Origin: an uncultured Armatimonadetes bacterium
GTDB lineage: Bacteria; Armatimonadota; UBA5829; DTJY01
Direction: 5' to 3'
DNA: 64,000 nt
Assembly: GCA_963717145.1 (NCBI GenBank)
Contig: OY970325.1
Span: forward strand, 5,219,248 to 5,283,247
Shown here: positions 2,531 to 54,155 of the stretch, one piece after another
Position numbering within the stretch: position 1 is the stretch's first letter
How the letters are laid out: every line of letters starts with the position of its first letter
Made by a program: the position numbers and the translations under genes
Notes under the pieces: model-generated
Told to the model about the DNA's origin: nothing
What the model saw: the letters and a program-made list of their open reading frames with translations, nothing else
The model's database searches: none

Positions 2531-2810
2531 CAGCCAAGATGTCCCCCTTACGAAGGGGGACCGGCCTCTGGGCCGAGGGGGTTTCCGCGTGTGGGTGCGC
2601 ATACAAACCTCCCCCGGCCTGCTGGCCGGCCCCTCCTTCGTAAGGAGGGGCGCAGACGGCTTCCGGGCCGAGGGGGTTGCCGCGCGCGGGTCCACGAAAC
2701 GGAACCGCCAAGACGCCAAGGACGCCAAGCGAACCTCCCCCGGCCTGCTGGCCGGCCCCTCCTTCGTAAGGAGGGGCGCAGACGGCCTGCTGGCCGAGGA
2801 GGTTTCAACA
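2531..2810. repeat. Cluster of three REP-like hairpin elements (family A: GGCCGGCCCCTCCTTCGTAAGGAGGGGC plus GAAACCTCCCCCGGCCTGCTGGCC)
   Basis: Near-identical copies at 2609-2680 and 2734-2810, plus a variant at 2531-2592. The same element occurs in inverted orientation at 7258-7309 and 7715-7770. Confidence 0.8.
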
Positions 2811-4960
2811 TGCGACAGATCGACTACAAGACATATCTCGACAAAGTGTACGGATGCTGGATCGGCAAGTGCGTCGCCGGCACGATCGGCGCTCCCTATG
2901 AAGGCGCGAAGGAGCTGTTCGACTTCGAGTACGACCCGAAGCTGATCGAGAAGATGCTCCCGAACGACGACCTCGACCTCCAGGTGCTCTGGCTGTCCGT
3001 CTTGGAAGAGAAAGGGATCGCCTTCACCTCCGACGACCTCGCCGATGCGTTCCTCAACAGGTGCAAGTACGCGCCCGGGGAGTACGCCTTCTTCAAGAAG
3101 AACTATGCCAGAGGCATCCATCCGCCGCTGAGTGGCGCGTACAACAACCGCTACTACATCGAGGGAATGGGCTGCCCGATCCGCTCCGAGGTATGGGCCT
3201 GCATCGCTCCCGGCAACCCGCAACTCGCCGCCGAACTCGCGGCGAAGGACGGGGTGCTCGATCACGCGGGGAACTCGGTCTACGCCGAGCAGTTCCTCGC
3301 CGCACTCGAGGCCGCCGCGTTCTTCGAGAGCGACATCGGGAAGCTCGTCGAGATCGGACTCAGTGTGATCCCCGAGGACTCGAAGATCGCCGGCCTGATC
3401 CGCGACGTCCGCGACTGGTGCCAGCTTGTGGGAGACGACTCGGGAGCGACTGTAGGGGCGTGCCTTGTGCCGCCTGTGACCGTCGACCAGGCGGCACAAG
3501 GCACGCCCCTACAGTCGCCTGTGACCGTCGACCAGGCGGCACAAGGCACGCCCCTACAGTCGCCTGCCGTAAGTGAGGACACCGGCGCTCCGGACTGGCG
3601 GTATGTCCGAAGCCAAATCCTGCGGAAGTACGGCCATCCGGACTGCACGAACATGTACCAGAACATGGGGATCACGCTCCTGGCGCTCTTCCTGGGAAGG
3701 GACTTCCTCGACACGACCATGATGGCGCTCAACTGCGGGTTCGACACCGACTGCACCTGCGCGACCGCCGGCTCGGTGCTCGGCATCATCCAGGGCGCGG
3801 AGTACCTGAGCACGACGCACGAGTTCCCCGAGCAGCGCTTCAAGCTCGGAGTCGATGCGCCTCGCCGATCCGACCGCGTCCTCGATCTGGCCGAGGATAC
3901 GTGCCTGATGGGCCTCCATTTCGCCGAGTACTTGAACAGGGATGTGGCGATCATTGACGCGCCGAAGCCGCCTCAAATCGAGCGGCCGGAGTACGAAACG
4001 GTCAAGGTCTCGATCGATTACCAGGGAGTCCCGGCGATGGGCATCGGTGAGACGCGAAAGATCAAGATTCTGTTTGACAACGAGCGCGTCAGCCCAGTCG
4101 GGATAGCGGTCTCCCTGACCGTCCCTGATGGCTGGGACGTATCCCCGACCTCCGCCGATCTGCTTCTCGATCCCGGCGTCAACTCCTGGGAGATCGAGGT
4201 GACCGTTCCGGCGGATATTCCGGTGCTGGATGAGCGGAACATGTTCGAGTTGGGATTCGATTCTTCCGCCGAGAGACCGGAAACCCCTCCCCAGCCCTCC
4301 CCGCAACGGAGAGGGAATCGCACTCTCTGCCCCCTCTCCGTTGCGGGGAGGGCTGGGGAGGGGTTTCCGGCTCGCTACCCATTCGGCATCGTCGGGGCGT
4401 CGGTGTGGGAAGTCTTCGGTCCATTCTGGCAGAACATCGGGCTCATCTCAGAGGGTACCAAGGACGAGATGGCGGATGTCGGCCGGATATACCACCTCAA
4501 CACGCGCGTCGATCCCGACCGGGAGTACATGACGCTCGACGAGATTCTCGGGCCGAAGATCACCGGCGACGCGGCGAAGGAAGGGCAGGTCGTCTGCTTC
4601 GGCGAGGACCTGATGTCGATGTCGGACGCGGTCGGATTCCAGGGGCCGTGCGCGGTGTATATGGTGCGGCGGATGATCTCGCCGGAGGACCGAACGCTCG
4701 GGGTGCTCGTCGGCCATACGGACGCGTACAAGCTGTGGATCAATGGGGAACTGATCAGCCGGCGGGACGACGTCGATTGGTGGACCGCCGAGAACGCGCA
4801 CATCCACGGGGTGAAGATCAACAAGGGCGAGAACATGATCGTCCTGCAGATGATCCGGCGCAGTTCCGAGGCGAAACTGAGCATCCTCTTCGTGAAGCGC
4901 GGCTCATGCTCCGAGCACTACTACGACTTCGCGTCGGTGAACCCGCGGCTCAGGGAGTAA
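2810..4960 (+). CDS. ADP-ribosylglycohydrolase family protein with a C-terminal beta-rich extension. Carries in-frame palindromic insertions.
   Basis: N-terminal GCWIGKCVAGTIGAPYEG and later GFDTDCTCATAGSVLG match the two conserved ADP-ribosylglycohydrolase metal-binding motifs. The caller ORF began at 2591 inside REP repeats. RBS-spaced ATG at 2810 (MRQIDYK). Confidence 0.6.
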   Translation: MRQIDYKTYLDKVYGCWIGKCVAGTIGAPYEGAKELFDFEYDPKLIEKMLPNDDLDLQVLWLSVLEEKGIAFTSDDLADAFLNRCKYAPGEYAFFKKNYARGIHPPLSGAYNNRYYIEGMGCPIRSEVWACIAPGNPQLAAELAAKDGVLDHAGNSVYAEQFLAALEAAAFFESDIGKLVEIGLSVIPEDSKIAGLIRDVRDWCQLVGDDSGATVGACLVPPVTVDQAAQGTPLQSPVTVDQAAQGTPLQSPAVSEDTGAPDWRYVRSQILRKYGHPDCTNMYQNMGITLLALFLGRDFLDTTMMALNCGFDTDCTCATAGSVLGIIQGAEYLSTTHEFPEQRFKLGVDAPRRSDRVLDLAEDTCLMGLHFAEYLNRDVAIIDAPKPPQIERPEYETVKVSIDYQGVPAMGIGETRKIKILFDNERVSPVGIAVSLTVPDGWDVSPTSADLLLDPGVNSWEIEVTVPADIPVLDERNMFELGFDSSAERPETPPQPSPQRRGNRTLCPLSVAGRAGEGFPARYPFGIVGASVWEVFGPFWQNIGLISEGTKDEMADVGRIYHLNTRVDPDREYMTLDEILGPKITGDAAKEGQVVCFGEDLMSMSDAVGFQGPCAVYMVRRMISPEDRTLGVLVGHTDAYKLWINGELISRRDDVDWWTAENAHIHGVKINKGENMIVLQMIRRSSEAKLSILFVKRGSCSEHYYDFASVNPRLRE
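3452..3557. repeat. Two tandem copies of the family B palindromic element (GTAGGGGCGTGCCTTGTGCCGCC ... GGCGGCACAAGGCACGCCCCTAC) inserted in frame in the CDS
   Basis: A 51-bp unit is duplicated in tandem. The frame is preserved and it translates to the repeated peptide PVTVDQAAQGTPLQS. Confidence 0.85.
4277..4370. repeat. About 94-bp perfect-arm palindrome (CCGGAAACCCCTCCCCAGCCCTCCCCGCAACGGAGAGGG ... CCCTCTCCGTTGCGGGGAGGGCTGGGGAGGGGTTTCCGG) inside the same CDS, in frame
   Basis: Inverted repeat read directly from the sequence. ORF 2591-4960 stays open across it. Confidence 0.8.
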
Positions 4961-5054
4961 GGGAGTGTGGGAGTATGGGAGTGTGGGGTATGGGAGTGTG
5001 GGAGTGTGGGAGTCCGGATCGCCCATACTCCCACACTCCCATACTCCCATACTC
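4961..5054. repeat. Hairpin built from GGGAGT/GGGAGTATG hexamer repeats, immediately after the stop codon at 4958-4960
   Basis: GGGAGTGTGGGAGTATGGGAGTGTGGG ... CCCATACTCCCACACTCCCATACTCCCATACTC. Related copy at 6184-6268. Confidence 0.8.
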
Positions 5055-5059
5055 TGCTA

Positions 5060-5959
5060 CTACTCCTCGTCGCCTCTGCCAAAGATGCGGGTCAGGAGGC
5101 CTGGCTTCCGGGGACTCTCGACCTCCGCCGGCTCATCGTCCGGCCAGTGGAGATCGTTCGCGGCTGCATTCAGTCGGCGGAAGAGATCGTCCGCGGATTC
5201 ATCCTGCTCGGTCTTATCCATGGAGTCGGCCTCAGATTGCGGCTTCACAATTGTTACCTGGGCGATCTCGGGTTCAGCCTCAGAGGCGGAGCGCGTCTCT
5301 TCGACCACCTCGGCCTCAACAGCGACCACCTCCTCACCTCGGGCTGACCGGGTCTCCGTGGGTCGAACGTCCCCCAGTGACTCCATGACAGGGGCGGGAG
5401 CGTCCACCGTCTGGGCGGAAGTGGTCTGTGCACTCGGCATCTCGACCGGCTCGGCTTCGACGTGCATCTCGGGCTTCGGCGACTCGACCTGCGGCGGAGA
5501 GGTCACGGGCGTCGTGACCGCGGAGACCTCTTTGGTCGGATCAGCCATTACCGGCCCGCTCGTCGTCCGGAAAATCTCGTCCTGCATCTCGCCGGCAAGC
5601 TCGTGTGTCCGGTGAAAGAGGTCGTTCACCCTGGACATGGTCTCTTCCCACTCGGGAGTGCCGCCGTCTTCGTTCTCCTTGGGGGCAGGCAGCTCCTTCA
5701 CCAGATGCGTGAACTCGGCGGAGAGCGCCAGGTTTGTGTCCTGCATCTGGTGGAGCACCGAACTGGCGCGATGGAGCATATAGTTCAACTCGCGCTGGCG
5801 TTGAAGTAGTTCGGAGGCGATGTGGTTCATCGAGGTCTCGCGAGTGCGGAAGTCCTCGACCTGCTGCTGGAGAAGCTTGCTCCGTTCGGCCAGAACAGCC
5901 TTGTGCTTGAGCGCTCTGAGCAGCTTGTCCTTCATGTTCTCGCTGAAATCTGGTGACAC
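5060..5959 (-). CDS. Hypothetical protein with a coiled-coil N-terminal half and an acidic, low-complexity C-terminal half
   Basis: 299-aa ORF with a coiled-coil-like N-terminus and no obvious stops in the surrounding GC-rich frame. No recognisable catalytic motif. Confidence 0.4.
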   Translation of the reverse strand: MSPDFSENMKDKLLRALKHKAVLAERSKLLQQQVEDFRTRETSMNHIASELLQRQRELNYMLHRASSVLHQMQDTNLALSAEFTHLVKELPAPKENEDGGTPEWEETMSRVNDLFHRTHELAGEMQDEIFRTTSGPVMADPTKEVSAVTTPVTSPPQVESPKPEMHVEAEPVEMPSAQTTSAQTVDAPAPVMESLGDVRPTETRSARGEEVVAVEAEVVEETRSASEAEPEIAQVTIVKPQSEADSMDKTEQDESADDLFRRLNAAANDLHWPDDEPAEVESPRKPGLLTRIFGRGDEE

Positions 5960-6183
5960 GAATCATCCCTCGCTTGGTTCCCTGACGACTCCCGTCGTCG
6001 GGGATACTGGTACTTATACCAGGATTATCGGCGGTTTCGACGGCTTTTCTGAGGCGGCACTGCCAGTTCAAGTTTATCACCATTCTCGGAGGATGTAAAC
6101 AAATGATGCCCGCCGACCCCTCATTCATCTCTACGCGTCACTCGGCCCAGGGGTTCCGGGTGAAGGAATCCGTCGTCCTGGAG

Positions 6184-6268
6184 GAGTATGGGAGTGTGGG
6201 AGAATGGGAGAATGGGAGTGTGGGAGTCCGGAACGCCCATACCCCCATTCTCCCACACCCCCATTCTC
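6184..6268. repeat. Second copy of the GGGAGT-type hexamer-repeat hairpin, just upstream of the RBS of the sugar-binding protein gene
   Basis: GGAGTATGGGAGTGTGGGAGAATGGGAGAATGGGAGTGTGGGAGTCCGGAACGCCCATACCCCCATTCTCCCACACCCCCATTCTC. Confidence 0.8.
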
Positions 6269-6285
6269 TCCCCAGGAGGCATGCC

Positions 6286-7257: not shown

Positions 7258-7309
7258 GCCCCTCCTTACGAAGGAGGGGCCGGCCAGCAGGCCGGGGGAG
7301 GTTTCCGGA
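7258..7309. repeat. Family A REP hairpin (inverted orientation) directly after the stop of the binding-protein gene
   Basis: GCCCCTCCTTACGAAGGAGGGGCCGGCCAGCAGGCCGGGGGAGGTTTCCGG. Confidence 0.8.
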
Positions 7310-7371
7310 TGGGCTGCTGGATGCGCTGCCGCTTGCAGGGGGGTGGCCGGAGGAGGTTAGAGGCTTGACCG

Positions 7372-7769
7372 AGTTGTTCAACCGGAAGACGGTGACCGCC
7401 AGACGTCGAGCACTGCGCGCTATCATGCCCGAGCCGGAAGTCGTCCTGTGGTCCAAGTTGAAGGGCAGGCAGGTGGACGGCGTCAAGTTTCGCAGGCAGT
7501 ACAGTGTCGGTCCGTACATCATCGACTTCTTCGCGCCAAAGGCCAAGCTTGCCATAGAAGTGGATGGCGACACCCATTCTGCGGAGGGGGCTGGTGAGCG
7601 TGATAGACAGAGGCAAGCTTACATTGAGGGTTTTGGCATCCGTGTGCTTCGGTTCACAAACAGGGAGGTTCTGCGCAACTTAGACGGTGTGCTGGTGACG
7701 ATACAACAAGCCATCTGCGAGGCCACGCCGGAAAACCCCCTCGGCCCAGAGGCCGGTCCCCCTTCGTAA
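7372..7769 (+). CDS. DUF559-type endonuclease-domain protein (very-short-patch-repair-like fold)
   Basis: Motifs LWSKLKGRQVDGVKFRRQ, IIDFFAPKAKLAIEVDG, H, RD and GIRVLRFTNREV are typical of DUF559. Start is uncertain (TTG 7372 or ATG 7428). The caller's Met at 7245 lies in the REP. Confidence 0.55.
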
Positions 7770-7770
7770 G
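7715..7770. repeat. Family A-variant REP hairpin overlapping the 3' end of the DUF559 gene
   Basis: CCGGAAAACCCCCTCGGCCCAGAGGCCGGTCCCCCTTCGTAAGGGGGAC. It is the reverse complement of the element at 2531-2592. Confidence 0.75.
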
Positions 7771-7803
7771 GGGGACATCTCGGTTGCGCCAGGTTGTCTT
7801 GAC

Positions 7804-10930: not shown

Positions 10931-12886
10931 ATGGTACGATTTGCCAGTCTTGTGGCCCGTGAGGGAAAGATATTGAAGACGACTGTTCTGCTGTCGGGCA
11001 ATGAGGCGATCGCCCGAGGCGCATATGAGGCCGGTGTTCGGGTCGCCGCGGGTTACCCCGGCACCCCGAGCACCGAGATACTTGAGAACATCACCCAGTA
11101 CGAGACGATCTACGCCGAGTGGTCGCCGAATGAGAAGGTTGCCCTCGAGGTCGCTCTCGGCGCTGCTCTCGGAGGCGCTCGGGCGCTCTGCACCATGAAG
11201 CACGTCGGCGTCAACGTCGCGTCCGACCCGCTGATGACCGCCTCGTACACCGGCATCAACCGTGGACTCGTGCTGGTGAGCGCCGACGACCCCGGCATGC
11301 ACAGCTCCCAGAACGAACAGGACAACCGTCACTACGCCCGGTTCGCCAAGATCCCGATGCTCGAACCGGCCGACAGCCAGGAGTGCAGGGACTTCACCAT
11401 CCGCGCCTTCGAGATCAGCGAAGCGTATGATACCCCGGTGCTGCTCCGAACGACCACCCGCGTGAACCACGGGAAATCGACCGTCAGCCTCTCTGAGCCG
11501 CAGGAGCCGGTCTTCGGCAGGTTTGAGTGCAACCTTCAGAAATACGTGATGATCCCCGCATACGCGATGAAGCGCCATGTGATCGTGGAGGAGCGGATGA
11601 TCCGCCTGAGGGAGTTGTCCAACGCCTCCGGTGTCGCCATTGCCCGTAGTGGCCGTGCCTCTGTGCCGGCCTCCGAGATCACTGGCCGGCACAGAGGCAC
11701 GGCCACTACGGGCAATGGCGACCTGCACCGCATCGAATGGGTCGACACGTCGATCGGCGTGATCACCTCGGGGATCGCATACCAGTACGTCAGGGAGGTG
11801 CTCCCGGAGGCGTCGGTACTGAAGCTCGGGATGACCTATCCGCTGCCCGACCGCCTGATCCGCGAGTTCGCGTCGAAGGTCGAGAAGCTGTACGTCGTCG
11901 AGGAACTCGATCCGTTCCTGGAGGATCAGATCAAGGCGCTCGGAATCGAGGTCATCGGCAAGGAGCGCTTCCCGATCATCGGCGAGCTGAACCCGAGGCT
12001 CGTCGCCGCTGGATTCGACTTGGGTAGGGGCGTGCCTTGTGCCGCCTGTGACGAGGTACCGGGCGGAGATGGACAGGCCACGGGCGGCACAAGGCACGCC
12101 CCTACAACCCAGCGGTTGGAGGGTGATATCCCCGGGCGGCCGCCGGTCCTCTGCCCGGGATGCCCTCACCGCGGGTTCTACCAGGTTCTGAAGAAGATGA
12201 AGGCCATCGTGACCGGCGACATCGGATGCTATACGCTCGGAGTGCTTCCGCCGCTCGAGGTAATGGACACCTGCATCTGCATGGGCGCATCGATCGGGAC
12301 CGCGCTCGGCATGAAGCGCGCTCAGTCGCCCGACGACAAGCGCCCGGTCGTGGCGGTGATCGGCGACTCAACTTTCGTCCACTCCGGGATCACCGGCCTG
12401 ATCGATGCCGTCTACAACGGCACGGCCGCGACGATATGCATCCTCGACAACTCCACGACCGCGATGACCGGCGGGCAGGAGCATCCGGCGTCGGGGAAGA
12501 CGCTCATGGGCAGTCCGGCGCCGAAGCTCGATCTGGCGGCCCTCGCACGTGCGATCGGTGTCGAGGACGTGCTGGTGGTCGATCCATACGATCTGGAGGC
12601 AGTCGAGAAGGCGCTCAGGTATGCGACCCGGACGGATAAGCCTTCGGTGATCATTACGAACAGGCCGTGCGTGCTGAGAGACAGGTCGGAGAAGCCGCCG
12701 AAGTCCTCCATCGCGCTGGAAATGTGTACCGGCTGCCAGGTGTGCTTCCGGATCGGATGCCCGGCGATGGAGTCGGTGGCGGTCGACGACAAGTTGCGCG
12801 CGCGGATCAACGCCAACCTGTGTCAGAGCTGTGGTGTCTGCATCCAGGTATGCCGCTTCGAGGCCATTGGGAGGCCGGAGGAATGA
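10931..12886 (+). CDS. iorA: Indolepyruvate:ferredoxin oxidoreductase alpha subunit, carrying two in-frame palindromic-element insertions
   Basis: N-terminal VLLSGNEAIARGAYEAGV and GYPGTPSTEI thiamine-pyrophosphate-enzyme motifs. C-terminal 4Fe-4S motifs CTGCQVCFRIGCP and CQSCGVCIQVC. 651 aa. Confidence 0.85.
   Translation: MVRFASLVAREGKILKTTVLLSGNEAIARGAYEAGVRVAAGYPGTPSTEILENITQYETIYAEWSPNEKVALEVALGAALGGARALCTMKHVGVNVASDPLMTASYTGINRGLVLVSADDPGMHSSQNEQDNRHYARFAKIPMLEPADSQECRDFTIRAFEISEAYDTPVLLRTTTRVNHGKSTVSLSEPQEPVFGRFECNLQKYVMIPAYAMKRHVIVEERMIRLRELSNASGVAIARSGRASVPASEITGRHRGTATTGNGDLHRIEWVDTSIGVITSGIAYQYVREVLPEASVLKLGMTYPLPDRLIREFASKVEKLYVVEELDPFLEDQIKALGIEVIGKERFPIIGELNPRLVAAGFDLGRGVPCAACDEVPGGDGQATGGTRHAPTTQRLEGDIPGRPPVLCPGCPHRGFYQVLKKMKAIVTGDIGCYTLGVLPPLEVMDTCICMGASIGTALGMKRAQSPDDKRPVVAVIGDSTFVHSGITGLIDAVYNGTAATICILDNSTTAMTGGQEHPASGKTLMGSPAPKLDLAALARAIGVEDVLVVDPYDLEAVEKALRYATRTDKPSVIITNRPCVLRDRSEKPPKSSIALEMCTGCQVCFRIGCPAMESVAVDDKLRARINANLCQSCGVCIQVCRFEAIGRPEE
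11636..11719. repeat. Family C palindromic element (GTAGTGGCCGTGCCTCTGTGCCGGCC ... GGCCGGCACAGAGGCACGGCCACTAC) inserted in frame within iorA
   Basis: Perfect inverted repeat. The frame is maintained and it translates to IARSGRASVPASEITGRHRGTATTGNG. Related copies at 24166-24230, 24326-24350 (half) and 50770-50800 (half). Confidence 0.85.
12024..12105. repeat. Family B palindromic element inserted in frame within iorA
   Basis: GTAGGGGCGTGCCTTGTGCCGCC ... GGCGGCACAAGGCACGCCCCTAC, translating to GRGVPCAACDEVPGGDGQATGGTRHAPT. Same family as 3452-3557, 25661-25721 and 54097-54155. Confidence 0.85.
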
Positions 12887-13461
12887 GCAATCGCACGACG
12901 AACATCAGACTGGCCGGTGTCGGCGGGCAAGGAATACTCGTAGCCAGTGAGGCGCTCTGCGATGCGCTGCTCGCGAGCGGCTTCGACGTGAAGAAGAGTG
13001 AGGTCCATGGGATGGCCCAGCGCGGCGGCACAGTGAACTCCGACGTGCGCTTCGGGGTCAAGGTGTGTTCCCCCATCATACCGGAGGGTGATGTGGACGT
13101 GCTGCTGGCATTCGAGCAGATGGAGGCGCTTCGGTATCTGCCGTCACTCAAGGCCGGCGGAGTCGTGATTGTGAATCGGCAGCGGATACTCCCGTCGGCG
13201 GTCGCCTCGGGGAAGCTGGAATACCCGGCCGACATCGAGAGCCGGCTCGCGGACCACGCGGGCGAGGTGATCTCGATCGATGCGCTGGACTTGGCGAAGG
13301 AAGCCGGCTCAGTCCGGAGCGTGAACGTCTGCCTGCTCGGGGCGCTGTCGCGGTTCCTCGAAGTCGAGGAATCGGTGTGGGAGAGCGTTCTCACCGAGCG
13401 GTTCAGGAACAAGGGGCTCGAGGCGAACCTGAAGGCCTTTGCGCTGGGGCGGGCCGTTTGA
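12883..13461 (+). CDS. iorB: Indolepyruvate:ferredoxin oxidoreductase beta subunit
   Basis: ATGA overlap with the iorA stop. MSNRTTNIRLAGVGGQGILVASEAL is the typical pyruvate-ferredoxin/flavodoxin oxidoreductase start. 192 aa. Confidence 0.8.
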   Translation: MSNRTTNIRLAGVGGQGILVASEALCDALLASGFDVKKSEVHGMAQRGGTVNSDVRFGVKVCSPIIPEGDVDVLLAFEQMEALRYLPSLKAGGVVIVNRQRILPSAVASGKLEYPADIESRLADHAGEVISIDALDLAKEAGSVRSVNVCLLGALSRFLEVEESVWESVLTERFRNKGLEANLKAFALGRAV

Positions 13462-13488
13462 GTATGAGTATGAGTATGAGTATGAGTA
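13459..13488. repeat. (GAGTAT)5 hexamer microsatellite directly after the iorB stop
   Basis: GAGTATGAGTATGAGTATGAGTATGAGTAGGAG. The complementary (ATACTC)n array is at 50463-50498. Confidence 0.8.
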
Positions 13489-13500
13489 GGAGCGGGAGCC

Positions 13501-18804: not shown

Positions 18805-18912
18805 TCCCCGGAAATCTCCCGCGATGGATGCTGAATCAAGTTCAGCATGACGCGTCGCGCTACCGTCATGCTGAACTTGATTCAGCATCCATCGGGGGGA
18901 GGTTCCGGGGCG
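18805..18912. repeat. About 100-bp palindrome between the binding-protein gene and the first permease gene
   Basis: GGATGCTGAATCAAGTTCAGCATGACGCGTCGCGCTACCGTCATGCTGAACTTGATTCAGCATCC, with extending flanks CCCCGGAAATCTCCC and GGGAGGTTCCGGGG. Confidence 0.75.
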
Positions 18913-19811: not shown

Positions 19812-19840
19812 ATAGCATCTGTTGGGTCTCTGTTGGGTCG

Positions 19841-19927
19841 GGAGTTGTACTCCCGAACCGGAGACTGGTTTGGCGGAGTTCAACTCCGCGTCGGTTCGGC
19901 GGGATGGAGTGCAACTCCATCCCGAAC
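19841..19927. repeat. Family D REP-like element (GGAGTTGTACTCC / GGAGTTCAACTCCG hairpins) in the livH-livM intercistronic region
   Basis: GGGAGTTGTACTCCCGAACCGGAGACTGGTTTGGCGGAGTTCAACTCCGCGTCGGTTCGGCGGGATGGAGTGCAACTCCATCCCG. Related copy at 36121-36228. Confidence 0.75.
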
Positions 19928-21334
19928 GGGGACGGTAGGCTTTCGACTTTGGACTTTCGACTTTCGACTAGACCTGCGATCCTGCGCCTGTTGCCGTTCA
20001 TCGCGCTCGTCGCAGCCATACTGGCGATACCGAACCTGGTATTCAAGCCGTCCGAAACGGGCGGCAACTACTACCTCACGGTTCTGATCTACGTCGGGAT
20101 CAACACGATCCTGGCGGTCGGACTGAACCTGCTCATGGGGTATGCGGGCCAGGTGTCGCTCGGTCACGCCGCCTTCTACGGTCTTGGCGCGTATGCGTCC
20201 GCCGTTCTGACGACCCGTGGCGTCCCTGCCGGTATCGTGGCCCCCGCAGCCGCCGTGATCGCCGTAATGGCGTCCGCCGCAGCGATCATCTCCATGCTTC
20301 GAGCCGAGTCCGGCAGGTTCTTGCTCTCGGTGGGCGGCTTCCTCCTTGCAGCAGTCTCCGCCGTCCACTTCGGACTCGCACACCCGGTGCCCTACATTCT
20401 GCTGGTCGCGGGCTGGATGGTTTCGTATGTTGCATACAGGATGTCGCCGATCAAACTGGCAGTCCCCTACGCCATCGGAGCGGTGGTCGGGCTCGTCACC
20501 TATTGGCTACTCGGACACGCCACGGGCGGCATGTCGCCCTGGTACGCGATGGCCGCCGGACTGGTCTTCACCTGCCTGATCGCGTATCTTATCGGCTCTC
20601 AGGCACTGAAGCTCCATGGACACTACCTGGCGATGGCGACTCTCGGCTTCGGCGTGATCATCGCCATCATCCTCGTGCAGTGGGAGCCGATGACGGGCGG
20701 CACATCGGGGATCTATGGCATTCCCAGCCTGCAACTCGGCAAGCTGGCCCTCGACAACGATATCTCCGTCTATTACCTGGTATGGGCGCTGGTTGCGGTA
20801 GTGATCGCGTTATCCGCCAACATCGTCAACTCGCGGATCGGGCGCGCGTTCCGAGCCGTGCACGGAAGCGAGGTTGCGGCGGCTTCTCTCGGGGTCGACG
20901 CGACTCGGTACAAGGTGCAGGTCTTCGTGCTGAGCGCCGCCCTGGCTTCGATCGCCGGCAGCATCTACGCTCATTACGTCACTTTCATCAGCCCCGAGCC
21001 GTTCGGGTTCAAGTTCTCGATCGAACTGGTGGTCATGGTGGTCATCGGGGGCTTGGCGAGCATCTGGGGCGCGGTGTTTGGGGCAGCGACGATAACAATC
21101 CTCGGCGAACTGCTGCGCGGGCTGGGAACGACCCAGACATTGGGCGCGGAGAAGGGCGTCTTTGCCCTGATCCGAGATAGACTCGGTGCTTCCCCCTCAG
21201 ATTTTGACGTGATCATTTTCGGCCTGATCCTGATGCTCATCATGATATACATGCCCAACGGCCTGCTCCGGACGATCGTCGACAGCGCGAAGTCTGCCAT
21301 CCGCCTGGCGCGGAGAAAGAAGGCGGTGGAGTGA
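19908..21334 (+). CDS. Branched-chain amino acid ABC transporter permease (LivM-like) with extra TM segments
   Basis: LLMGYAGQVSLGHAAFYGLGAYASAVL core motif. Start is uncertain because the first in-frame ATG lies inside the REP. Confidence 0.7.
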
Positions 21335-24153: not shown

Positions 24154-24165
24154 CAGATGGCTCAT

Positions 24166-24230
24166 GTAGTGGCCGCGCCTCCGTGCCGGCCACTGAGGTG
24201 GTAAGGCCGGCACAGAGGCACGGCCACTAC
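24166..24230. repeat. Family C REP hairpin downstream of paaK2
   Basis: GTAGTGGCCGCGCCTCCGTGCCGGCCACTGAGGTGGTAAGGCCGGCACAGAGGCACGGCCACTAC. Confidence 0.8.
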
Positions 24231-33130: not shown

Positions 33131-33342
33131 GACGGAGTTGGCGGCGTTTTCATGCCGATTGGGAATCACTGCTGGGGAGTTTGCGCCGTCCGGTAGCCGA
33201 GGGAACCCTGCTGAGAGCCGAGTGGCAGGCCATAATATCTAATAGGTAACGAGTAATGAGTAAGCAGGAGGAACGCGCGCTCATCTTTCGCCGGTCATTA
33301 CTTGTTACCCATTACCCATTGCGCCTTACCGGGAGGATACCC

Positions 33343-34002: not shown

Positions 34003-34250
34003 TGCGGAATGCGGATTGCGGAATGGGGCGGGGACGATGGGGTCCCCGCCCATCCTGCATTCTTGTCTGAGCCGGACGAAAGACACCGGCATACTCAGGG
34101 CTGACGGGGTGGGGGAGCGAACACCTGTGCCCAACATGCTCCTTCGAAAGAAACTCCCTACTGGGTGGGCGGGCGGGTACAAACTCCGGGAACGGCGACC
34201 GCATCCGGAGTTTGTACCCGCCCGCCCACCCAGTAGGGAGTTTCTTTTAC
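34003..34250. repeat. Post-stop hairpin built from CGGAAT-type repeats (34003-34062), followed by a long palindrome with about 45-bp arms (34147-34250)
   Basis: TAATGCGGAATGCGGATTGCGGAATGGGGCGGGGACGATGGGGTCCCCGCCCATCC. Then GAAAGAAACTCCCTACTGGGTGGGCGGGCGGGTACAAACTCCGG ... CCGGAGTTTGTACCCGCCCGCCCACCCAGTAGGGAGTTTCTTT. Confidence 0.8.
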
Positions 34251-36083: not shown

Positions 36084-36120
36084 AGTTCGATCTCCTTCGG
36101 GAGCGCCGATCACGTTCGGG

Positions 36121-36228
36121 CTGGAGTTGTACTCCAGCCCGCATAACTGACCGCGGAGTTGGACTCCGCTCGGACGGGGAGTACAACTCCCCTGGTTAGT
36201 GTCGCGTGCCGGAGTACAACTCCGGCAC
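36121..36228. repeat. Family D REP-like element (three GGAGTTGTACTCC-type hairpins) between convergent or divergent genes
   Basis: CTGGAGTTGTACTCCAG, GCGGAGTTGGACTCCGC, GGGGAGTACAACTCCCC, CCGGAGTACAACTCCGG. Confidence 0.8.
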
Positions 36229-36239
36229 GAACAGGGTGG

Positions 36240-38305
36240 TTATGTCTTGGTCTCCAATTTGGCCGGGCTTTCGCCGGACCGAATACGGGCGTACTCGATC
36301 AACCCGGCGAAGGGGTTCGCGTCCTTGTAGCCCCCGACGAGCGAGCCGTGGTCCACTCCGACCTGCAGACCCTCGACCGGCTTCACCGGGAGCCGGCCGA
36401 TGTCGTTCGAGGCGACGAGCTTCCTGTCCACCCACAACTGCGCGCCCTTCGACGTGAGATTGGCGTTGATGCGGGACCATCCCTCGCCGATCGGATACTT
36501 CGCCGCGACCTCGGTCAGCGCCCCGTCGATGCGGATCGCGAGCGTGGGGATTCTATCCCTAAGGTAGAGCGCGTACCCGTGGCTCTCTCCTCCCTGGGCG
36601 AGGATGACGCCATCCGACTCGGGCTTCACCATTGCCTCCACGTTCCAGTCGATCGCGCCGGGATCGAGGCTCTTGGAGGGTGGGACATCGACGAAATCGC
36701 CTTTCGCGAGCTTCAAGACCTTCTTGCCGCCGTCTTCCACGAACGTCCCGCCGTGGAGCGTGCCATGGTTCCCCTGGCCGGAGAGATCATCAGCGTTCCC
36801 CTTGCTGAAGTCGAAACTCAGCACCGGGCCGATCACCCGCTCGACCTTCTCACCGACGACCGGCGGCGCTCCGAGTTGGACTCCCTCGGGGTAGCCGGTC
36901 GCCTTTTTGAGCCGTGCAAGTTCCTTCCGCATCTCCTTGAGCCTGACCGCATGAGCCGGATCCTGCGCGAGGTTGTGCATCTCGATGGGATCGGCCTTCA
37001 GGTCGTACAGCTCGTCGATGTCGTTCATGTCCGGATAGGTGCAGTACTTCCATCGATCCGTGCGGACGCCGAGCATGAGGGGAAGGCCCGCCGCCCAAGA
37101 CTCGCGGAAGTATTCGTACAGGAACGACTCGTGGCCCGGCTTGCCCTTCAGGACGGGGACCATCGAGCGCCCCTGCATGCCCTCGGGGATCTTCACGCCC
37201 GCGAGTTCGAGCACGGTCGGCGCAAGGTCGATGTTCAACACAGTGCCGTCCACCTTGCTGCCTGCCTTGACGAGCTTCGGGTAGCGCACGAGCATCGGGA
37301 TGCGGATCGATTCCTCATACATCAGCCGCTTGTCGCCGAGTCCGTGCTCGCCGACGAAGTATCCGTTGTCGCCCGCGAAGACGATGATCGTGTTGTCGAG
37401 CTTCCCGGCCTTCTCCAGCGTATCGAGCACGCGCCCGATGCTCTCGTCGATCCCGAGGATCGTGCGGTAGTAGTCCATCATACCCTTGCCGTTCCAGTCA
37501 CCGCGCTTTATCTCGTCGGGGATCGGCTGGCCCTCGCTCGCGGCCCACTGGTTGCGCTGCATACCATGGGTGAACGCGCGTCTCATCCACTTCGGCTTGT
37601 CGGCGAACGTGTCCTTGAAGCTCGCGGGCTCGGGGATGGAGTCGTCGGCGAATGCATCCCTGTGCCGGGGCGCGGGGTGAAGGGCCCGTGCACCGCCTTG
37701 TGGGAGAGCACCATGCAGAACGGCTGGGTCCGATCCTTCCTCAGCCACCTGAGGGCGTAGTCGGTCAGGATGTCGCTCATGTACCCCTTGGCCCTGAACT
37801 CGCGACCGTTCTCGTTCAGCTTCGGGTCCTCATAGACTCCCTGCCCGAGGAAGCTGAGCCAGTAGTCGAATCCCGGGCGAGGATTCGACGTCGGGGCCTG
37901 ATGCCACTTCCCCACGAACGCGGTATCGTAGCCAGCATCCTGGAGAAGCTTGGGGAACGTGGGACATGAGGGATCGGGATCGAAGCCCTCGTTGGTGACG
38001 ACGCCGTGCTTGTGGGCATAGGTCCCGGTCAGGAAGCACGCTCGGCTCGGGGAGCAGAGCGCGATCGTGACGAACGCATTCCGGACGTGCGCTCCCTCGC
38101 GGGCGATGCGGTCGAGGTTCGGCGTCTTGAACCACGACGGGTGACCCATGAACCCCATTGCGTCATGGCGCTGGTCGTCGGTCAGGATGAAGAGGATGTT
38201 CGGCCGCTCGCCTGCATCGGCCTCATCCATGGAGAGCCCGGCGGCGAGTACCCCGGCTGTTGCCATCCCCCGACTCAGGAATTCACGTCGTGTGATTGTG
38301 GTCAT
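36240..38305 (-). CDS. Arylsulfatase (formylglycine-dependent sulfatase) with a TAT signal, split by a frameshift in a C-run near 37690
   Basis: TRREFLSRGMATAGVLAAG twin-arginine signal. CSPSRACFLTG sulfatase signature. The junction ...HKAVHGPFTP / (A)PRHRDAFADDSIPEP is restored by adding one C. Paralog of the gene at 38318. Confidence 0.7.
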
Positions 38306-38317
38306 TGTGTTCTCCTG

Positions 38318-39814
38318 CTAATCCTTGCGTTCGCCGCCGGTTACCGGCTCGGTCTTGGCGGCGGTCACCGGAGGCCGGCCAACTTGAACGCCCTCGGGGT
38401 ATCCGTTCGCCTTCTTGAGTCGGGCAAGCTCGTCCCGCATCTCCTTGAGCTTCTCCGCATGAGCCGGATCCTGGGAGAGGTTCGTCAACTCGTTTGGATC
38501 GCTCTTCACGTCGTACAGCTCCTCGATGTCATTCATGTCGGGATACGAGCAGTACTTCCATCGACCGCTTACAACTCCGAGCATGAGCGGCATGCCCGGC
38601 AGGCTCTCCTCGCGGAAATACTCGTAGAGGAACGACTTACGCCCCGCTTTCCCTTGCAGGACGGGGAGCATCGAACTGCCCTGCACGCTCTCGGGCGACT
38701 TCACGCCGGCGAGTTCCAGGAATGTGGCAGCGAGGTCTATATTCAGGACGGTCCCATCGACCTTGCTCCCCGCTTTCACGAGTTTTGGATAGCGCACGAG
38801 CATCGGGATGCGGATCGACGACTCATAGATCAGCCGCTTGGTGTTCAATCCGTGCTCGCCGAGGAAGTACCCATTGTCGCCCGCGAAGACGATGAACGTG
38901 TTGTCGAGGCGGCCGGACGCCTCAAGTTCACTCAGCACTCGCCCGACGCTGTCGTCGATCGCAAGTAGGGTCCGATAGTAGTCCAGCCCGTTCTTGCCGT
39001 CCCAGGGCTTCCTCTCGACCTTTTCGGGGATCGGCTTGCCCTCGCTTTCGGGCCACGTGCCGGGACCTGCCCCAGAGGTGAAGGCACGCCTCATCCACTT
39101 GGGCTTGCCGGCGAACGTATCCCTGTAGTTCGCGGGCTCTGGGAGGGATTCGTTCGCGAATGCATCCTTGTGCCTGGGAGCAGGGGTGAACGGCGCGTGG
39201 ATCGCCTTGTGGGCGAGCACCATGCAGAACGGCTGGGTACGGTCCCTTTTCAGCCACTTGATGGCATAGTCGGTCAGGATGTCCGTCATATAACCGGCGG
39301 CCTTGAACTCACGACCGTTCTCATTCAGGTCCGGGTCCTCGTACACTCCCTGGCCGAGAAAGCTCAGCCAGTAGTCGAAGCCCGGCCTGGGATCCGACTT
39401 CGGTGCCTGGTGCCATTTGCCGATGTAGGCAGTCTTGTACCCGGCTTTCTGGAGAAGTTGGGCGAAGTTGGGGCATGAGGGATCGGGGTCATAGCCCTCA
39501 TTGTTGACCACCCCGTGCTTGTGGGGGTAGGCCCCTGTGAGGAACGTGGCGCGACTGGGGGCACAGAGCGCCAGTACCACATAGGCGTTCCGGACGTGCG
39601 CCCCCTCTCGAGCGATGCGGTCGAGGTTCGGCGTCTTGAGGAACGGCGTCTTTCCCATGAACCCCAGGGCGTCGAAGCGTTGGTCGTCGGTCAGGATGAA
39701 CAGGATGTTCGGCCGCTCGTCTGCACTGGCCTCACTCATGGAGAGCACGGCGGCGAGTACCCCGGCCGCGGCAATTCCTCCAGTCATGAAGTCACGTCGT
39801 GTAATCGTGGTCAT
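38318..39814 (-). CDS. Arylsulfatase (formylglycine-dependent), TAT-exported
   Basis: TRRDFMTGGIAAAGVLAAV twin-arginine signal. CAPSRATFLTG. 498 aa, intact. Confidence 0.85.
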   Translation of the reverse strand: MTTITRRDFMTGGIAAAGVLAAVLSMSEASADERPNILFILTDDQRFDALGFMGKTPFLKTPNLDRIAREGAHVRNAYVVLALCAPSRATFLTGAYPHKHGVVNNEGYDPDPSCPNFAQLLQKAGYKTAYIGKWHQAPKSDPRPGFDYWLSFLGQGVYEDPDLNENGREFKAAGYMTDILTDYAIKWLKRDRTQPFCMVLAHKAIHAPFTPAPRHKDAFANESLPEPANYRDTFAGKPKWMRRAFTSGAGPGTWPESEGKPIPEKVERKPWDGKNGLDYYRTLLAIDDSVGRVLSELEASGRLDNTFIVFAGDNGYFLGEHGLNTKRLIYESSIRIPMLVRYPKLVKAGSKVDGTVLNIDLAATFLELAGVKSPESVQGSSMLPVLQGKAGRKSFLYEYFREESLPGMPLMLGVVSGRWKYCSYPDMNDIEELYDVKSDPNELTNLSQDPAHAEKLKEMRDELARLKKANGYPEGVQVGRPPVTAAKTEPVTGGERKD

Positions 39815-49138: not shown

Positions 49139-49903
49139 ATGAGCCCATTTGTTGCAGGCCGCGAGTTCCTCAAGGCCCACGTGTGGAAGGAGTTCAGCGA
49201 CCAGAAGCTTGTCACCGGCCAGAGTATGGGAGCGCCCAGACCTGATCCCGAGAAGCCGTTCCCGAGCGACGCCCGGCTGATCGACCTCGTCGATCCCGCC
49301 GACTTCACGGTTGGCGACGTCCCGATCAAGGACGTCATCCGCCGCAGACGAAGCCGGCGGAAGTTCACAGACGAGGCGCTGTCACTCGAAGAGTTGTCGT
49401 ACCTGCTCTGGGCGACCCAGGGCGTTACGAAGGCCGCGAACCTCCGAGACGGTGTCCTCACGTACCGGACGGTCCCGGCGGGAGGCGCGCTTCAGCCGTT
49501 CGAGACCTACCTGGCCGTCAACCGGGTCACCGGCGTCGAAGCGGGCCTGTACCGATACCTCCCGATGGAGCACAAGCTGCTCTTCATGCGCTCGGATCCC
49601 GATCTCATGGAGAAGGCTGCCCTCGGGTGCGCCGGTCAGGACTTCGTGGCGACGAGCGCGGTCGTCTTCATCTGGACGTGTCTCCCGTACCGCAAGGAAT
49701 GGCGGTATTCGGTCGCCGCGCACAAGATCATCGCCCAGGACTCCGGCCATCTCTGCCAGAACCTCTATCTCGCTGCCGAGTCGGTCGGCGGCGGGACGTG
49801 TGCGATCGGGGCATACTTCCAGGAGGAGATGGACACCCTTCTGAGCGTCGACGGCGAGGACGAGTTCACCATCTACGTCGCCCCGGTGGGGAAGGTCGGG
49901 TAG
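49139..49903 (+). CDS. SagB/ThcOx-type nitroreductase-fold dehydrogenase domain protein
   Basis: RRSRRKF, LSYLLWATQG and GHLCQNLYLAAESVGGGTCAIGAYF motifs. Confidence 0.7.
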   Translation: MSPFVAGREFLKAHVWKEFSDQKLVTGQSMGAPRPDPEKPFPSDARLIDLVDPADFTVGDVPIKDVIRRRRSRRKFTDEALSLEELSYLLWATQGVTKAANLRDGVLTYRTVPAGGALQPFETYLAVNRVTGVEAGLYRYLPMEHKLLFMRSDPDLMEKAALGCAGQDFVATSAVVFIWTCLPYRKEWRYSVAAHKIIAQDSGHLCQNLYLAAESVGGGTCAIGAYFQEEMDTLLSVDGEDEFTIYVAPVGKVG

Positions 49904-49976
49904 TGAGCAGTAAATGGTGAACGGTGAGCAGTGAGTTCCGAGACCGTTCACCGTTTACTGCTTACCGTTCACCGGC
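49904..49976. repeat. 72-bp palindrome between two convergent genes (bidirectional-terminator-like)
   Basis: TGAGCAGTAAATGGTGAACGGTGAGCAGTGAGTTCCGAGACCGTTCACCGTTTACTGCTTACCGTTCACCGG. Confidence 0.75.
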
Positions 49977-50462: not shown

Positions 50463-50638
50463 CTACTCATACTCATACTCATACTCATACTCATACTCAA
50501 TCCGGGGCGAAGCATTGGCGATTCTGTCCCGAAGTCGGCGCAGTCCGAAGGGCCAATGCTTCGCCCCTACATCCTGGGCGGAGAACTGGCGATTCTGTCC
50601 CGAAGTCGGTACAGTCCGATTGGCCGATGTTTCGCCCC
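50463..50638. repeat. (ATACTC)6 microsatellite followed by two tandem copies of an about 65-bp palindrome
   Basis: CCGGGGCGAAGCATTGGCGATTCTGTCCCGAAGTCGGCGCAGTCCGAAGGGCCAATGCTTCGCCCCTAC, then a variant copy. Confidence 0.8.
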
Positions 50639-50890
50639 TACACCCGGAGATGTCTGGTCTAGCGCAGCTTTCTTCTGCGGCAACTACGGTATATATACCG
50701 TGCTGTACTTGCCGCATAGTGCGGTAAGTCGCGCACTCCCCCAGGACGTGCCGTTGCCGCCGTCCCGCCGGATGGCCGGCACGGAGGCACGGCCACTACG
50801 GTTTTCGTCGCACCGGCCTGCTTGTCCTGCGAGGCAGGGAAACGGATGGTTTACAATCCCGGGCGCTTTCCACTATCATTGTCCCACGCA

Positions 50891-52870: not shown

Positions 52871-52971
52871 GCCGGAGTTCCGTCATGCACCGCTTGACGC
52901 TGTCCCCGAAATACCGGATAATCACTTATGGAAACCAACTCCGTGTTGGAACACGTCATGGAGGATATCCG

Positions 52972-54087
52972 ATGCGTATAACTCTCGTAATACTGGCTCT
53001 GCTCAGCATAGTCACAGCGGCCTGCGCGGCCGATGGTCAAGCATTCCTCGGCATGTTTGCCGAGACGAGCATCATGCAGATCGCGGGCATGCCCGAGATG
53101 CCGCCCATTCCGCCCGGCATCGAGATGCCGAACATCCCCGGCATGGAGGGGATGATGAGCATGGGCAAACCCGTCCGATCGTTCACCGTGAGACTCTGGT
53201 CGCCTGGGATCGCTCCGGAGGGCGCAACGGCAGGCATCGTTCCGCCCGAGGGCCTGAAACAGGGGAACAGACTCGACCTCGAACTCTATCGACCCAAGGC
53301 CGAGAAGTCCGAAACCGGCGGTGAGACCGGTCCGGGCCAGGATGGGGGCAAGATTCCCGACTTCACGATCAAGTACTACTGGGGATCGTCCGCCACAGTC
53401 AGGCCCGGCCAGCCGAAGATCATCAGCTCGAAGTCGATGACCGCTGAAGCGAAACAGCTTATGGAGAAGGAGCGACCGGCGGCCAGGGGAGGCTCATCCT
53501 ACTTCTACAAGCCCGACTGGACCACCGCATACTGGCCGACCAAGAAGCAGCCCGGCAAGATCGCCAAGGATGCGGCGCTGCCCGGGAAGTACGCCCTGAC
53601 GACCAGCTACACCGGCAATGTCGAACTCGATTGCCCGCCGAACGTCGACTTCCTCGCGCCGATCAAGCTCGTCAGCCCGAGCCTGGCGGATCCGGTGGAT
53701 CTCTCCGGCGTCTTGACGCTCAAATGGAAGCCGATCCCGAACCTGCTCGGCTCTCATGCCGTCATCATGGGCATGGAGGGCAAGGACACGCTCATCATGT
53801 GGAGTTCCGCCGAAATCTGGCGCGACGATATCATGTCGGTCGACTGGGGCTACCTCCAGATGGCGGAAGTCCAGCAGTATGTCAAGGACCAGATCATGAT
53901 GCCCGGCGCGCAGACGCAGTTTGTCGTCCCCGCGGGCATCTTCAAGGAGAGCGATATGGCCTCGCTAACGATGACCGGTTATGGCCCGGGCGCGGCTCGA
54001 ATGGACACTCAGCCGCTGCCCCGCATCCAGACCAAGACGAAGCTCACAGTCCAGCTCGGCGGCAAAGCCGTCGGGGAGATGAAGTGA
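52972..54087 (+). CDS. Secreted hypothetical protein with a Met/Pro/Gly-rich N-terminal region
   Basis: RBS-spaced ATG at 52972. Signal peptide MRITLVILALLSIVTAACA. The caller ORF 51925-54087 is a spurious upstream extension that overlaps the membrane-protein gene. Confidence 0.5.
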   Translation: MRITLVILALLSIVTAACAADGQAFLGMFAETSIMQIAGMPEMPPIPPGIEMPNIPGMEGMMSMGKPVRSFTVRLWSPGIAPEGATAGIVPPEGLKQGNRLDLELYRPKAEKSETGGETGPGQDGGKIPDFTIKYYWGSSATVRPGQPKIISSKSMTAEAKQLMEKERPAARGGSSYFYKPDWTTAYWPTKKQPGKIAKDAALPGKYALTTSYTGNVELDCPPNVDFLAPIKLVSPSLADPVDLSGVLTLKWKPIPNLLGSHAVIMGMEGKDTLIMWSSAEIWRDDIMSVDWGYLQMAEVQQYVKDQIMMPGAQTQFVVPAGIFKESDMASLTMTGYGPGAARMDTQPLPRIQTKTKLTVQLGGKAVGEMK

Positions 54088-54096
54088 CCATGGGCT

Positions 54097-54155
54097 GTAG
54101 GGGCGCGCCTTGTGCCGCCCGAGATAGGGCTGCGGGCGGCACAAGGCGCGCCCCT
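54097..54155. repeat. Family B REP hairpin (GCGC variant)
   Basis: GTAGGGGCGCGCCTTGTGCCGCCCGAGATAGGGCTGCGGGCGGCACAAGGCGCGCCCCTAC. Confidence 0.8.

Follow-up and report, generated by a model that had tools for sequence, protein, structure and literature searches.

Repetitive extragenic palindromes (REPs) tagged by the tetranucleotide GTAG form a superfamily, which includes the REPs and bacterial interspersed mosaic elements (BIMEs) of E. coli, the Pseudomonas REPs, the SMAGs of S. maltophilia and families GTAG-17 to -20 of Opitutus terrae (Di Nocera, De Gregorio & Rocco 2013, PMC3733652). They carry an unpaired terminal GTAG and a GC-rich stem of 5-13 bp, in which a bulge or unpaired residues precede a loop flanked by GC. 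Head-to-head and tail-to-tail dimers, several families in the same genome and a location 3' of open reading frames (ORFs) have been described for them, as well as intragenic dimers encoding 20-30 residues, sometimes twice per ORF; REP-rich genomes with these traits are found in Opitutus terrae, Stenotrophomonas, Pseudomonas and Rickettsia (PMC3733652). The transposase TnpA_REP needs GTAG and, for the E. coli type, the stem bulge, and cuts at CT dinucleotides located 5' or 3' of the REP (PMC8266576). Inverted REP doublets with less-conserved spacers, or REPINs, act as the replicative unit (Bertels & Rainey 2011, PMC3116915). CGTC-tagged REPs feature a terminal CGTC, an 8-9 bp stem starting with AT pairs, a 4-5 nt loop and a CCA-like tail; some Rickettsia palindromic elements (RPEs) are of this type (PMC3733652). 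In the 64-kb stretch of DNA analyzed here, which is referred to as the window at its full length, about 19 GTAG-tagged units were found, among them the arms of two palindrome families, B and C, together with several classes of untagged hairpins, including families A and D.

The window has a GC content of about 62%. Perfect inverted repeats with a stem of at least 14 bp and a loop of up to 60 nt occur 16 times, 10 of them with a stem of at least 20 bp; none was found in 30 dinucleotide-preserving shuffles. The four REP-like palindromic families reported in the initial annotation, A to D, were all recovered by pattern searches in their expected places or within a few bases of them, far above the numbers expected from shuffles (0 matches for A, B and C, about 1 for D), and the arms within each family are identical or nearly so. 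Further hairpin classes were recovered by independent repeat finding, namely those at 4277, 18806 and 34147, the periodic palindromes and the hexamer runs. A generic scan for GTAG plus a hairpin proved unusable alone (31 observed, 6-21 in shuffles), and a k-mer census at k = 11 was swamped by repeats of the coding sequences. Neither a CRISPR array nor integron attC sites describe these repeats, which are without a regular repeat-spacer array and have the wrong end motifs, and intrinsic terminators were rejected for B and C, as no T-run follows them. No family reached the Rfam gathering score anywhere in the window, hence no known structured RNA is behind A or D.

Most elements are located directly after stop codons (2503, 7258, 24163, 54093, 55698), between cistrons (family D between livH and livM; 18806-18910 between a binding-protein gene and livH) or in leaders, and four are inside genes, in full agreement with the placement first proposed. 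The GTAG-tagged units are as follows.

Family B arms, at 3452-3557, 12024-12105, 25661-25721 and 54097-54157: nine copies, with 0-1 mismatch
Family C arms, at 11646-11709, 24166-24230 and 50774-50799: five copies
2503-2529, plus strand: single GTAG REP GTAGGGAACGTGCCGCCGTGCCGTTCC, 4 nt past the stop codon of a DUF6785/6784 gene
3446-3563: family B dimer, head-to-head, 31-bp perfect arms, 11-nt loop
11633-11722: family C dimer, head-to-head, 39-bp perfect arms, 12-nt loop, exactly 90 nt
12024-12105: family B dimer, head-to-head, 36-nt spacer
24163-24233: family C dimer, head-to-head, arms 93% complementary, 13-nt spacer
24327-24352, plus strand: single variant GTAG unit GTAGTGGCCGGTGAATGCCGGC
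25659-25723: family B dimer, head-to-head, 27-bp perfect arms, 11-nt loop, intergenic
50464-50799, minus strand: mosaic BIME-like cluster in a divergent intergenic region
54093-54161: family B dimer, head-to-head, 29-bp perfect arms, 11-nt loop, 6 nt past a stop codon
55698-55723, plus strand: single GTAG REP GTAGGGGAGGCCTTCGACGGCCTCCC, 4 nt past a TAG stop codon

The dimer at 3446-3563 also holds a 45-nt in-frame tandem copy of the loop and right arm, and that at 24163-24233 starts 10 nt past the stop codon of the second paaK-like gene. In the mosaic cluster, (TACTCA)6 is accompanied by two GTAG-tagged long-stem units of 71 nt in tandem (50500-50641), with a perfect stem of 16 bp in the first, and by one family C unit on its own (50773-50799). 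Two supposed half copies of C turned out to be different things: 50774-50799 is indeed a C arm, while 24326-24350 corresponds to the variant unit GTAGTGGCCGGTGAATGCCGGC.

GTAG is found at the start of all nine B arms, all five C arms and the single units at 2503, 24327, 50562, 50633 and 55698. Single arms are predicted to adopt one structure, in which GTAG is followed by a stem of 5-6 bp, a bulge of a single T, GC:GC and a loop of 5-6 nt, and the B, C, 2503 and 55698 units correspond to hairpins of 20-27 nt, with energies between -9.5 and -18.7 kcal/mol. The inner core CGTGCC..GTGCCG is common to B, C and the 2503 unit, and their outer stems differ by compensatory changes (GGGCG/CGCCC, GGCCG/CGGCC, GGAACG/CGTTCC). 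In the alignment of these three, pairing is preserved in 46/46 cells and both sides are changed at 3 of 8 pairs; slid alignments drop to 15-54% pairing, and none of 500 shuffles reaches the covariation score. Since architecture and inner core are shared and the changes in the outer stem are compensatory, B and C are best seen as subfamilies of one superfamily, and the notion that all four families are unrelated fails for this pair.

All six dimers are inverted head-to-head pairs with GTAG facing outward, separated by 11-13 nt in five cases and by 36 nt in one; their arms, of 23-39 bp, are perfectly or 93% complementary. Head-to-head pairing across a short spacer thus produces a near-perfect hairpin of 63-90 nt, similar to a REPIN. 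As in REPINs (PMC3116915), inverted REPs plus spacer form one long hairpin, doublets outnumber singlets, the spacer is less conserved and no target duplication is found.

Four elements are located in frame within two genes, and the frame stays open in all of them: the B dimer 3446-3563 and the hairpin 4277-4370 in an ADP-ribosylglycohydrolase-family gene (2810-4960), the C dimer 11633-11722 and the B dimer 12024-12105 in iorA (10931-12886), both genes being assigned by a Pfam scan of about 50 ORFs of the window. Each insertion adds about 30-53 residues to the predicted translation. IorA has 651 residues here and its homologues mostly 575-600, five of the listed matches being longer (608-677). 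The 30-residue segment encoded by C is absent from all 16 homologues in a 17-sequence alignment, including the closest one, which is 90% identical; the B copy falls in the variable inter-domain linker. Most full-length best matches of the ADP-ribosylglycohydrolase-family protein are about 615-670 residues long and match the query in three stretches, and in the alignment the inserts of 53 and about 30 residues, private to the window, fall exactly at the 3446-3563 and 4277-4370 hairpins. In the AlphaFold model of IorA, of moderate confidence (mean pLDDT 66), residues 234-263 (pLDDT about 27) and 365-406 (pLDDT below 50) are the two longest low-confidence, unstructured segments, a picture loosely compatible with inserts that are tolerated as surface loops.

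For comparison at the DNA level two contigs were used: L010, carrying the closest IorA homologue (the 90% identical protein), and L011 (21.7 kb), syntenic with the window from IorA through the liv operon at about 80% nucleotide identity. Compared with both, the C element in iorA is a clean 90-nt insertion with no target duplication, and both contigs are devoid of the C and the B copy in IorA. The 13-nt outer stem of this C copy is missing from the orthologues and is therefore not derived from the target. In L011 a single 13-bp perfect hairpin, in the gap between the binding-protein gene and livH, is found where the window has many; the 18806 element and the family D cluster at 19835-19924 are both missing. 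Because close relatives do not carry the elements at orthologous sites, these look recently acquired, and this presence/absence comparison upholds the recent mobility originally suggested by the similarity of the copies. The window can be regarded as a compact, well-controlled case of recent REP invasion, next to syntenic relatives which are almost free of hairpins.

L010 hosts a palindrome family of its own, with two copies in 4.7 kb (2390-2443 and 3411-3472) and arms like (T)AGGAGCGCC(C/G)(G/A)TGTCCTCA. One copy immediately precedes iorA; the second lies in the IorA linker that holds family B in the window, which points to a permissive site having been used repeatedly.

No exact match to the B arm was found in 185,579 species-representative genomes. 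The arm is present in nine metagenome contigs, three of which (L003, L007 and L008; 55-60% GC) contain the same head-to-head B dimer with different spacers. Others, of 43-49% GC and including phage-like ones, contain single units beside related GTAGGGGCGGGATTTATCCCGCCC hairpins. Among viral contigs, B was found in one phage-like contig only (L092) and C was not found; BLAST of the B dimer gave no match in plasmid or phage collections. No obvious Y1 transposase was seen among the ORFs near B in the metagenome contigs, as judged by eye and without a Pfam scan.

In the phage-like contigs L001 (11753-12685), L006 and L092 (49% GC), two exact B arms with the same orientation are separated by 910 nt, and one of them is inside an ORF. 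A terminase-like ORF was noticed nearby by eye, and GTAGGGGCGGGATTTATCCCGCCC and GTAGGGGACGGATTTATCCGTCCC hairpins are also present.

Peptides encoded by the B dimer had no candidate in a collection of 5.8 billion proteins; the lack of such peptides among predicted proteins implies that the lineage is barely sampled. The nearest named relatives of the window IorA are from Armatimonadetes metagenome-assembled genomes, with an identity of 66-67% by BLASTP and of 71-73% in the alignment, and among the matches listed in the P0001 protein scan of genomes all relatives are at most 60% identical. The host probably belongs to a poorly sampled lineage related to Armatimonadota. The literature search returned no paper linking REPs with Armatimonadetes, and the lineage appears to be new for REPs.

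Families B and C, together with the single units at 2503, 24327, 50500-50641 and 55698, are best explained as members of the GTAG-tagged REP superfamily, mostly arranged as REPIN-like dimers and probably mobilized by a REP-associated tyrosine transposase (RAYT). The tag, the bulged GC-rich stem, the subfamilies differing by complementary stem changes and the prevalence of head-to-head dimers are all shared with the superfamily; the same holds for singletons, trimers, mosaic clusters, several families per genome, sites 3' of ORFs and intragenic dimers. Since there is a published precedent for every trait, the window shows a known kind of element in a new lineage, and its density and diversity, which had been considered unusual, are high and nonetheless precedented in REP-rich genomes (PMC3733652). 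Some features differ: the searched B and C strings are absent from the supplementary files of PMC3733652, the head-to-head spacers of the window are of 11-13 nt and unrelated whereas conserved ones are the rule of thumb in that paper, and the window arms are perfect homodimers of up to 39 bp. The in-frame insertions recall the behavior of RPEs, palindromic elements which are also inserted in frame in tolerated regions of coding genes, with the translation only predicted for the window; RPEs differ in having a CGTC tag or none, another sequence, AT-rich obligate intracellular hosts and, in some classes, a larger size. The GTAG-REP/REPIN phenomenon is thereby extended to a poorly sampled lineage, with REP dimers written as extra loops into IorA and an ADP-ribosylglycohydrolase-family protein. 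For annotation this is a warning, as long ORFs in such genomes can carry repeat-derived peptide segments.

As GTAG and a bulged stem define RAYT substrates (PMC3733652, PMC8266576), a RAYT located elsewhere in the genome can reasonably be postulated for B and C. This HUH/Y1 tyrosine transposase (RAYT/TnpA_REP) would recognize the single-stranded hairpin and its GTAG, cut at nearby CT dinucleotides and reinsert the element without target duplication. Direct target duplications flank neither the 90-nt insertion in IorA nor any of the remaining B and C copies, which fits single-strand transposition of the IS200/RAYT type and argues against miniature inverted-repeat transposable elements (MITEs) of the DDE type. 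Insertions would persist where tolerated, directly after stop codons, between cistrons and in 5' leaders; within genes they would survive when length and frame allow, at loops or linkers, and be translated as about 30-53 extra residues. REPs of E. coli stabilize the upstream mRNA between binding-protein and permease genes (malE-malF, hisJ-hisQ). A stable 3' hairpin between such genes could similarly protect upstream mRNA in the window, where hairpins are found between binding-protein and permease genes at 7258-7309, 7716-7788 and 18806-18910; in contrast to the E. coli case, these are untagged A-type elements and not GTAG REPs.

Several observations weigh against a RAYT-driven origin of the whole set. 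Neither a RAYT or Y1_Tnp domain nor any other transposase was detected by Pfam among the about 50 window ORFs. Families A and D have no GTAG tag, which leaves them outside a RAYT model. Any effect on mRNA or translation is deduced solely from position and folding. The spacers of the B and C copies, while of similar length, are unrelated in sequence, the sole likeness among the six dimers being a TGTGAC start common to the two intragenic B copies; and in five of the six dimers, as well as in L003 (5 nt), the arms remain complementary for another 2-13 nt outside GTAG, in sequence private to the copy. In both respects the window differs from described REPINs, and it also differs from them by the several intragenic copies, REPINs being described as extragenic. 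Copying of one master REPIN does not explain unrelated spacers or private outer-stem extensions; the latter could result from RAYT cutting at variable sites or from templated synthesis between the arms. If the pattern is genome-wide, extensions and spacers could be informative on how REP dimers are formed.

The same observations are the starting point of an unlikely, if still worth considering, alternative, by which a single REP, once inserted, would acquire and extend its inverted partner in place through intrastrand template switching (quasipalindrome correction or fold-back synthesis), and dimers would be the outcome of replication errors and not mobile units. Spacers constant in length (11-13 nt) and unrelated in sequence would be expected from it, as would the copy-specific extensions and arms that remain perfect even when they carry a private change, as in 54093-54161, where the same private T>C change is found in both arms. 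The periodic palindromes described below, with their symmetric repeat expansion, also suggest arm-to-arm copying. Direct evidence of template switching is lacking, however; orthologues do not have the 13-nt outer stem found in the IorA copy, which was thus not copied from the target; and variable ends could equally be produced by RAYT cutting at different CT dinucleotides (PMC8266576). A broader version, in which in-place dimer formation, an unusually high intragenic load and horizontal spread are combined, is likewise given little credit. In it, head-to-head dimers may be built, or kept perfect, in place through arm-to-arm templated synthesis, which would explain at once private extensions, symmetric private substitutions, unrelated spacers of constant length and symmetric periodic palindromes. 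If true, the host must tolerate perfect palindromes of 30-47 bp, for instance by lacking hairpin cleavage of the SbcCD type, and such a tolerance would allow the high in-frame load of four insertions in two of about 50 genes; the different palindrome family in the IorA linker of L010 is cited for the same load. For the third component, the B arm recurs as an exact 23-28-mer in contigs that are phage-like or of low GC, a hint that REP and transposase may have spread horizontally.

The remaining repeats do not carry the GTAG tag. They are listed below, with z-scores of predicted folding where relevant.

2529-2804, plus strand: family A cluster, with an A-i unit at 2529-2601 and A-ii units at 2606-2678 and 2732-2804
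4277-4370: hairpin, perfect 39-bp stem, 16-nt loop, in frame in the ADP-ribosylglycohydrolase-family gene
4953-5061: periodic palindrome, (GGGAGTGT)n ... (ACACTCCC)n, z = -8.1
6183-6268: periodic palindrome with the 8-nt unit of 4953-5061, z = -7.3
7258-7309, minus strand: inverted partial A-ii unit, with 7258-7304 complementary to 2605-2651 (100% over 47 nt)
7716-7788, minus strand: inverted A-i unit, 88% complementary to 2529-2601, upstream of the permease gene (7804)
13459-13492, plus strand: (GAGTAT)n hexamer run between iorB and paaK, with an inverted counterpart at 50464-50499
18806-18910: hairpin, 47-nt arms, 31-bp perfect core, 11-nt loop, z = -13.7
19835-19924: family D cluster, three units, between livH (stop codon at 19811) and livM
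34147-34247: hairpin, perfect 43-bp stem, 15-nt loop, between convergent genes
36114-36232: family D cluster of four units, found in both orientations and together forming a large inverted repeat, z = -7.8
49903-49972: periodic palindrome of GGTGAACG-like units, between convergent nitroreductase and DinB-like genes
62630-62721: periodic palindrome of ATGGTT-like units

The family A core, CCCCTCCTTCGTAAGGAGGGG, is found at 2630, 2756 and 7259. Each unit is composed of a first hairpin, CCCC(T)CCTT-NNN-AAGG(A)GGGG, a second one, CGGCC-NNNN-GGCCG, and a tail, GGGGAGGTTTCCGG; two subtypes are related via compensatory changes. The A-ii units of the 2529-2804 cluster, which fills an intergenic gap of 310 nt, are 95% identical and have a period of 126 nt, and the last of them is predicted to pair the GGAGG Shine-Dalgarno sequence of the gene starting at 2810 (2732-2809, z = -5.7). 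The partial copy at 7258-7309 starts 1 nt past the stop codon of the sugar-binding-protein gene. The tail motif also forms the outer ends of the long hairpins 4277-4370, with termini CCGGAAACCCCTCCCC/GGGGAGGGGTTTCCGG, and 18806-18910, located between the amino-acid-binding-protein gene (stop codon at 18779) and livH; it is thus more appropriate to see A as a superfamily in which the termini are shared and the interiors vary. The hairpin 34147-34247 has GTAGGGAGTTTCTTT at its outer ends and an inner part resembling the D core (GGAGTTTGTAC).

The gap between the sugar-binding-protein and permease genes is 546 nt long and bounded by A units. A degraded gene may be located in the stretch 7310-7715 between them, and this apparent sugar ABC operon is without an ATPase gene.

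Family D units, seven to nine in all, come in clusters of three or four, in either orientation. Their core, given as GGAGTNNNACTCC, has nine pattern matches (19841-19918 and 36123-36223; about 1 expected), with an invariant GGAGT-NNN-ACTCC and two adjoining stem pairs that are always paired, with three pair types each. The third unit of the 19835-19924 cluster includes a candidate ATG of livM (19904), and the 36114-36232 cluster lies between two minus-strand genes. In the periodic palindromes, arms are built from tandem repeats of 6-8 nt. The one at 4953-5061 lies between convergent genes, where it overlaps the stop codon that ends the 2810-4960 gene, and that at 6183-6268 is in the 5' leader of the sugar-binding-protein gene, whose likely start is at 6286; its stem is predicted to pair the upstream AGGAGG. 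In the long ORF of this gene the Pfam domain begins at residue 92; several apparent N-terminal extensions are hairpins read through.

A CGTC assignment was rejected for A and D, as their stems are GC-rich, their loops 3 nt long and a CGTC tag is not consistently present. Together with the A-like long hairpins and the periodic palindromes, they make up additional classes of structured repeats without a tag, sharing the niches of the tagged ones.

A periodic palindrome of GGAGTNNT units was also noticed in L011, at 2036-2114, directly after a DUF6785 gene; hairpins of this type would thus seem to predate the invasion by B and C.

The organization of family A brings in a rather improbable explanation, that the elements are MITEs, deletion derivatives of DDE-type insertion sequences (ISs), moved via terminal inverted repeats, with target-site duplications left behind, by a full-length IS encoded elsewhere. 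A common terminal motif, CCGGAAAC(C)CCTCCCC / GGGGAGGTTTCCGG, encloses otherwise unrelated interiors in the A units and in the hairpins 4277-4370 and 18806-18910, an arrangement resembling terminal inverted repeats, and every element is short and without coding capacity. Against it, direct target duplications are lacking at the 4277 and 18806 hairpins as they are at every B and C copy, the GTAG and bulged hairpin of B and C are the signature of a Y1 substrate, and no transposase was detected among the about 50 window ORFs scanned.

It is still more doubtful that the repeats are host regulatory structures (3' mRNA stabilizers, attenuators or stems sequestering Shine-Dalgarno sequences) arisen in place and maintained by selection, their repetition reflecting convergent or duplicated modules. 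Many sites would suit such roles, namely the binding-protein/permease gaps (7258, 18806), the positions after stop codons and those over Shine-Dalgarno sequences or starts (2732-2809, 6170-6285, 19904). Predicted stability is extreme, with z down to -13.7, the D stem is preserved via covariation, and L011 has its small hairpin in the same binding-protein/livH gap. Yet identical arms of 23-26 nt are found at unrelated loci and inside enzyme coding regions, where no regulatory role is expected, close relatives do without the elements, and the same arm occurs in unrelated metagenome contigs. Exaptation after insertion, in turn, agrees with mobilization of REPs by a RAYT.

Assembly or chimera artefacts are hardly credible: library or assembly steps can create long perfect palindromes, but frames are open across the insertions in two genes whose flanks align to homologues, copies differ in flanks and loops, and the same dimer is present in independent metagenome assemblies, so that for B, with its arm in nine such contigs and the head-to-head dimer in three, confinement to the window and artefact, named at the outset as the outcomes to fear, are both excluded.

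According to the Pfam scan, the window also encodes three DUF6785/6784 paralogues, a sugar ABC binding protein and permease, iorB, paaK, an SSF-family solute symporter, ACT-domain proteins, a liv-type ABC operon, a restriction-modification and PIN block, sulfatases, glycoside hydrolases and a two-component system. The middle DUF6785/DUF6784 paralogue (25793-27783) is split into two overlapping ORFs in different frames, with a break near 27100, and is either a frameshifted pseudogene or the result of a sequencing error. A 238-nt direct repeat (27547-27784 and 28564-28801, 92% identical), which copies the 3' end of the DUF6784-coding region, flanks a PIN-domain gene (27846-28298, minus strand). 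The PIN region is followed by a low-GC block (52-57%) with an MmeI/Eco57I-type N6-methylase (30276-32228) and unknown ORFs, and the whole 27547-33250 region looks like an integrated defence or toxin island. Within livM, about 306 nt (20218-20533; about 100 hydrophobic residues) are missing in L011; this segment forms no palindrome and shows no relationship to the repeat families.

Tandem sulfatase paralogues, 77-82% identical at the nucleotide level, occupy 36240-39814 on the minus strand. Of these, the downstream copy (36240-37748) corresponds only to the C-terminal part of the sulfatase domain, has an overlapping ORF upstream (37583-38305) and is probably disrupted. Other repeats include an 85-nt unit present twice (32945-33114), followed by a palindrome with 27-nt arms at 33096-33150, and a 22-nt unit, GTAAACAGGCCTCCCAACCATG, repeated about six times in tandem near the end of the window (63631-63784). 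A 100-nt tRNA-Ala(CGC) called by ARAGORN at 54463-54562, on the minus strand, is probably a false positive, Rfam reporting no tRNA in the window at gathering score. Two adjacent minus-strand genes (59468-61477), with matches to collagen repeats and to phage tail-collar/Gp10_C-like domains, share a 262-nt repeat (82%) and may be a prophage remnant or a pair of tail-fibre-like adhesins.

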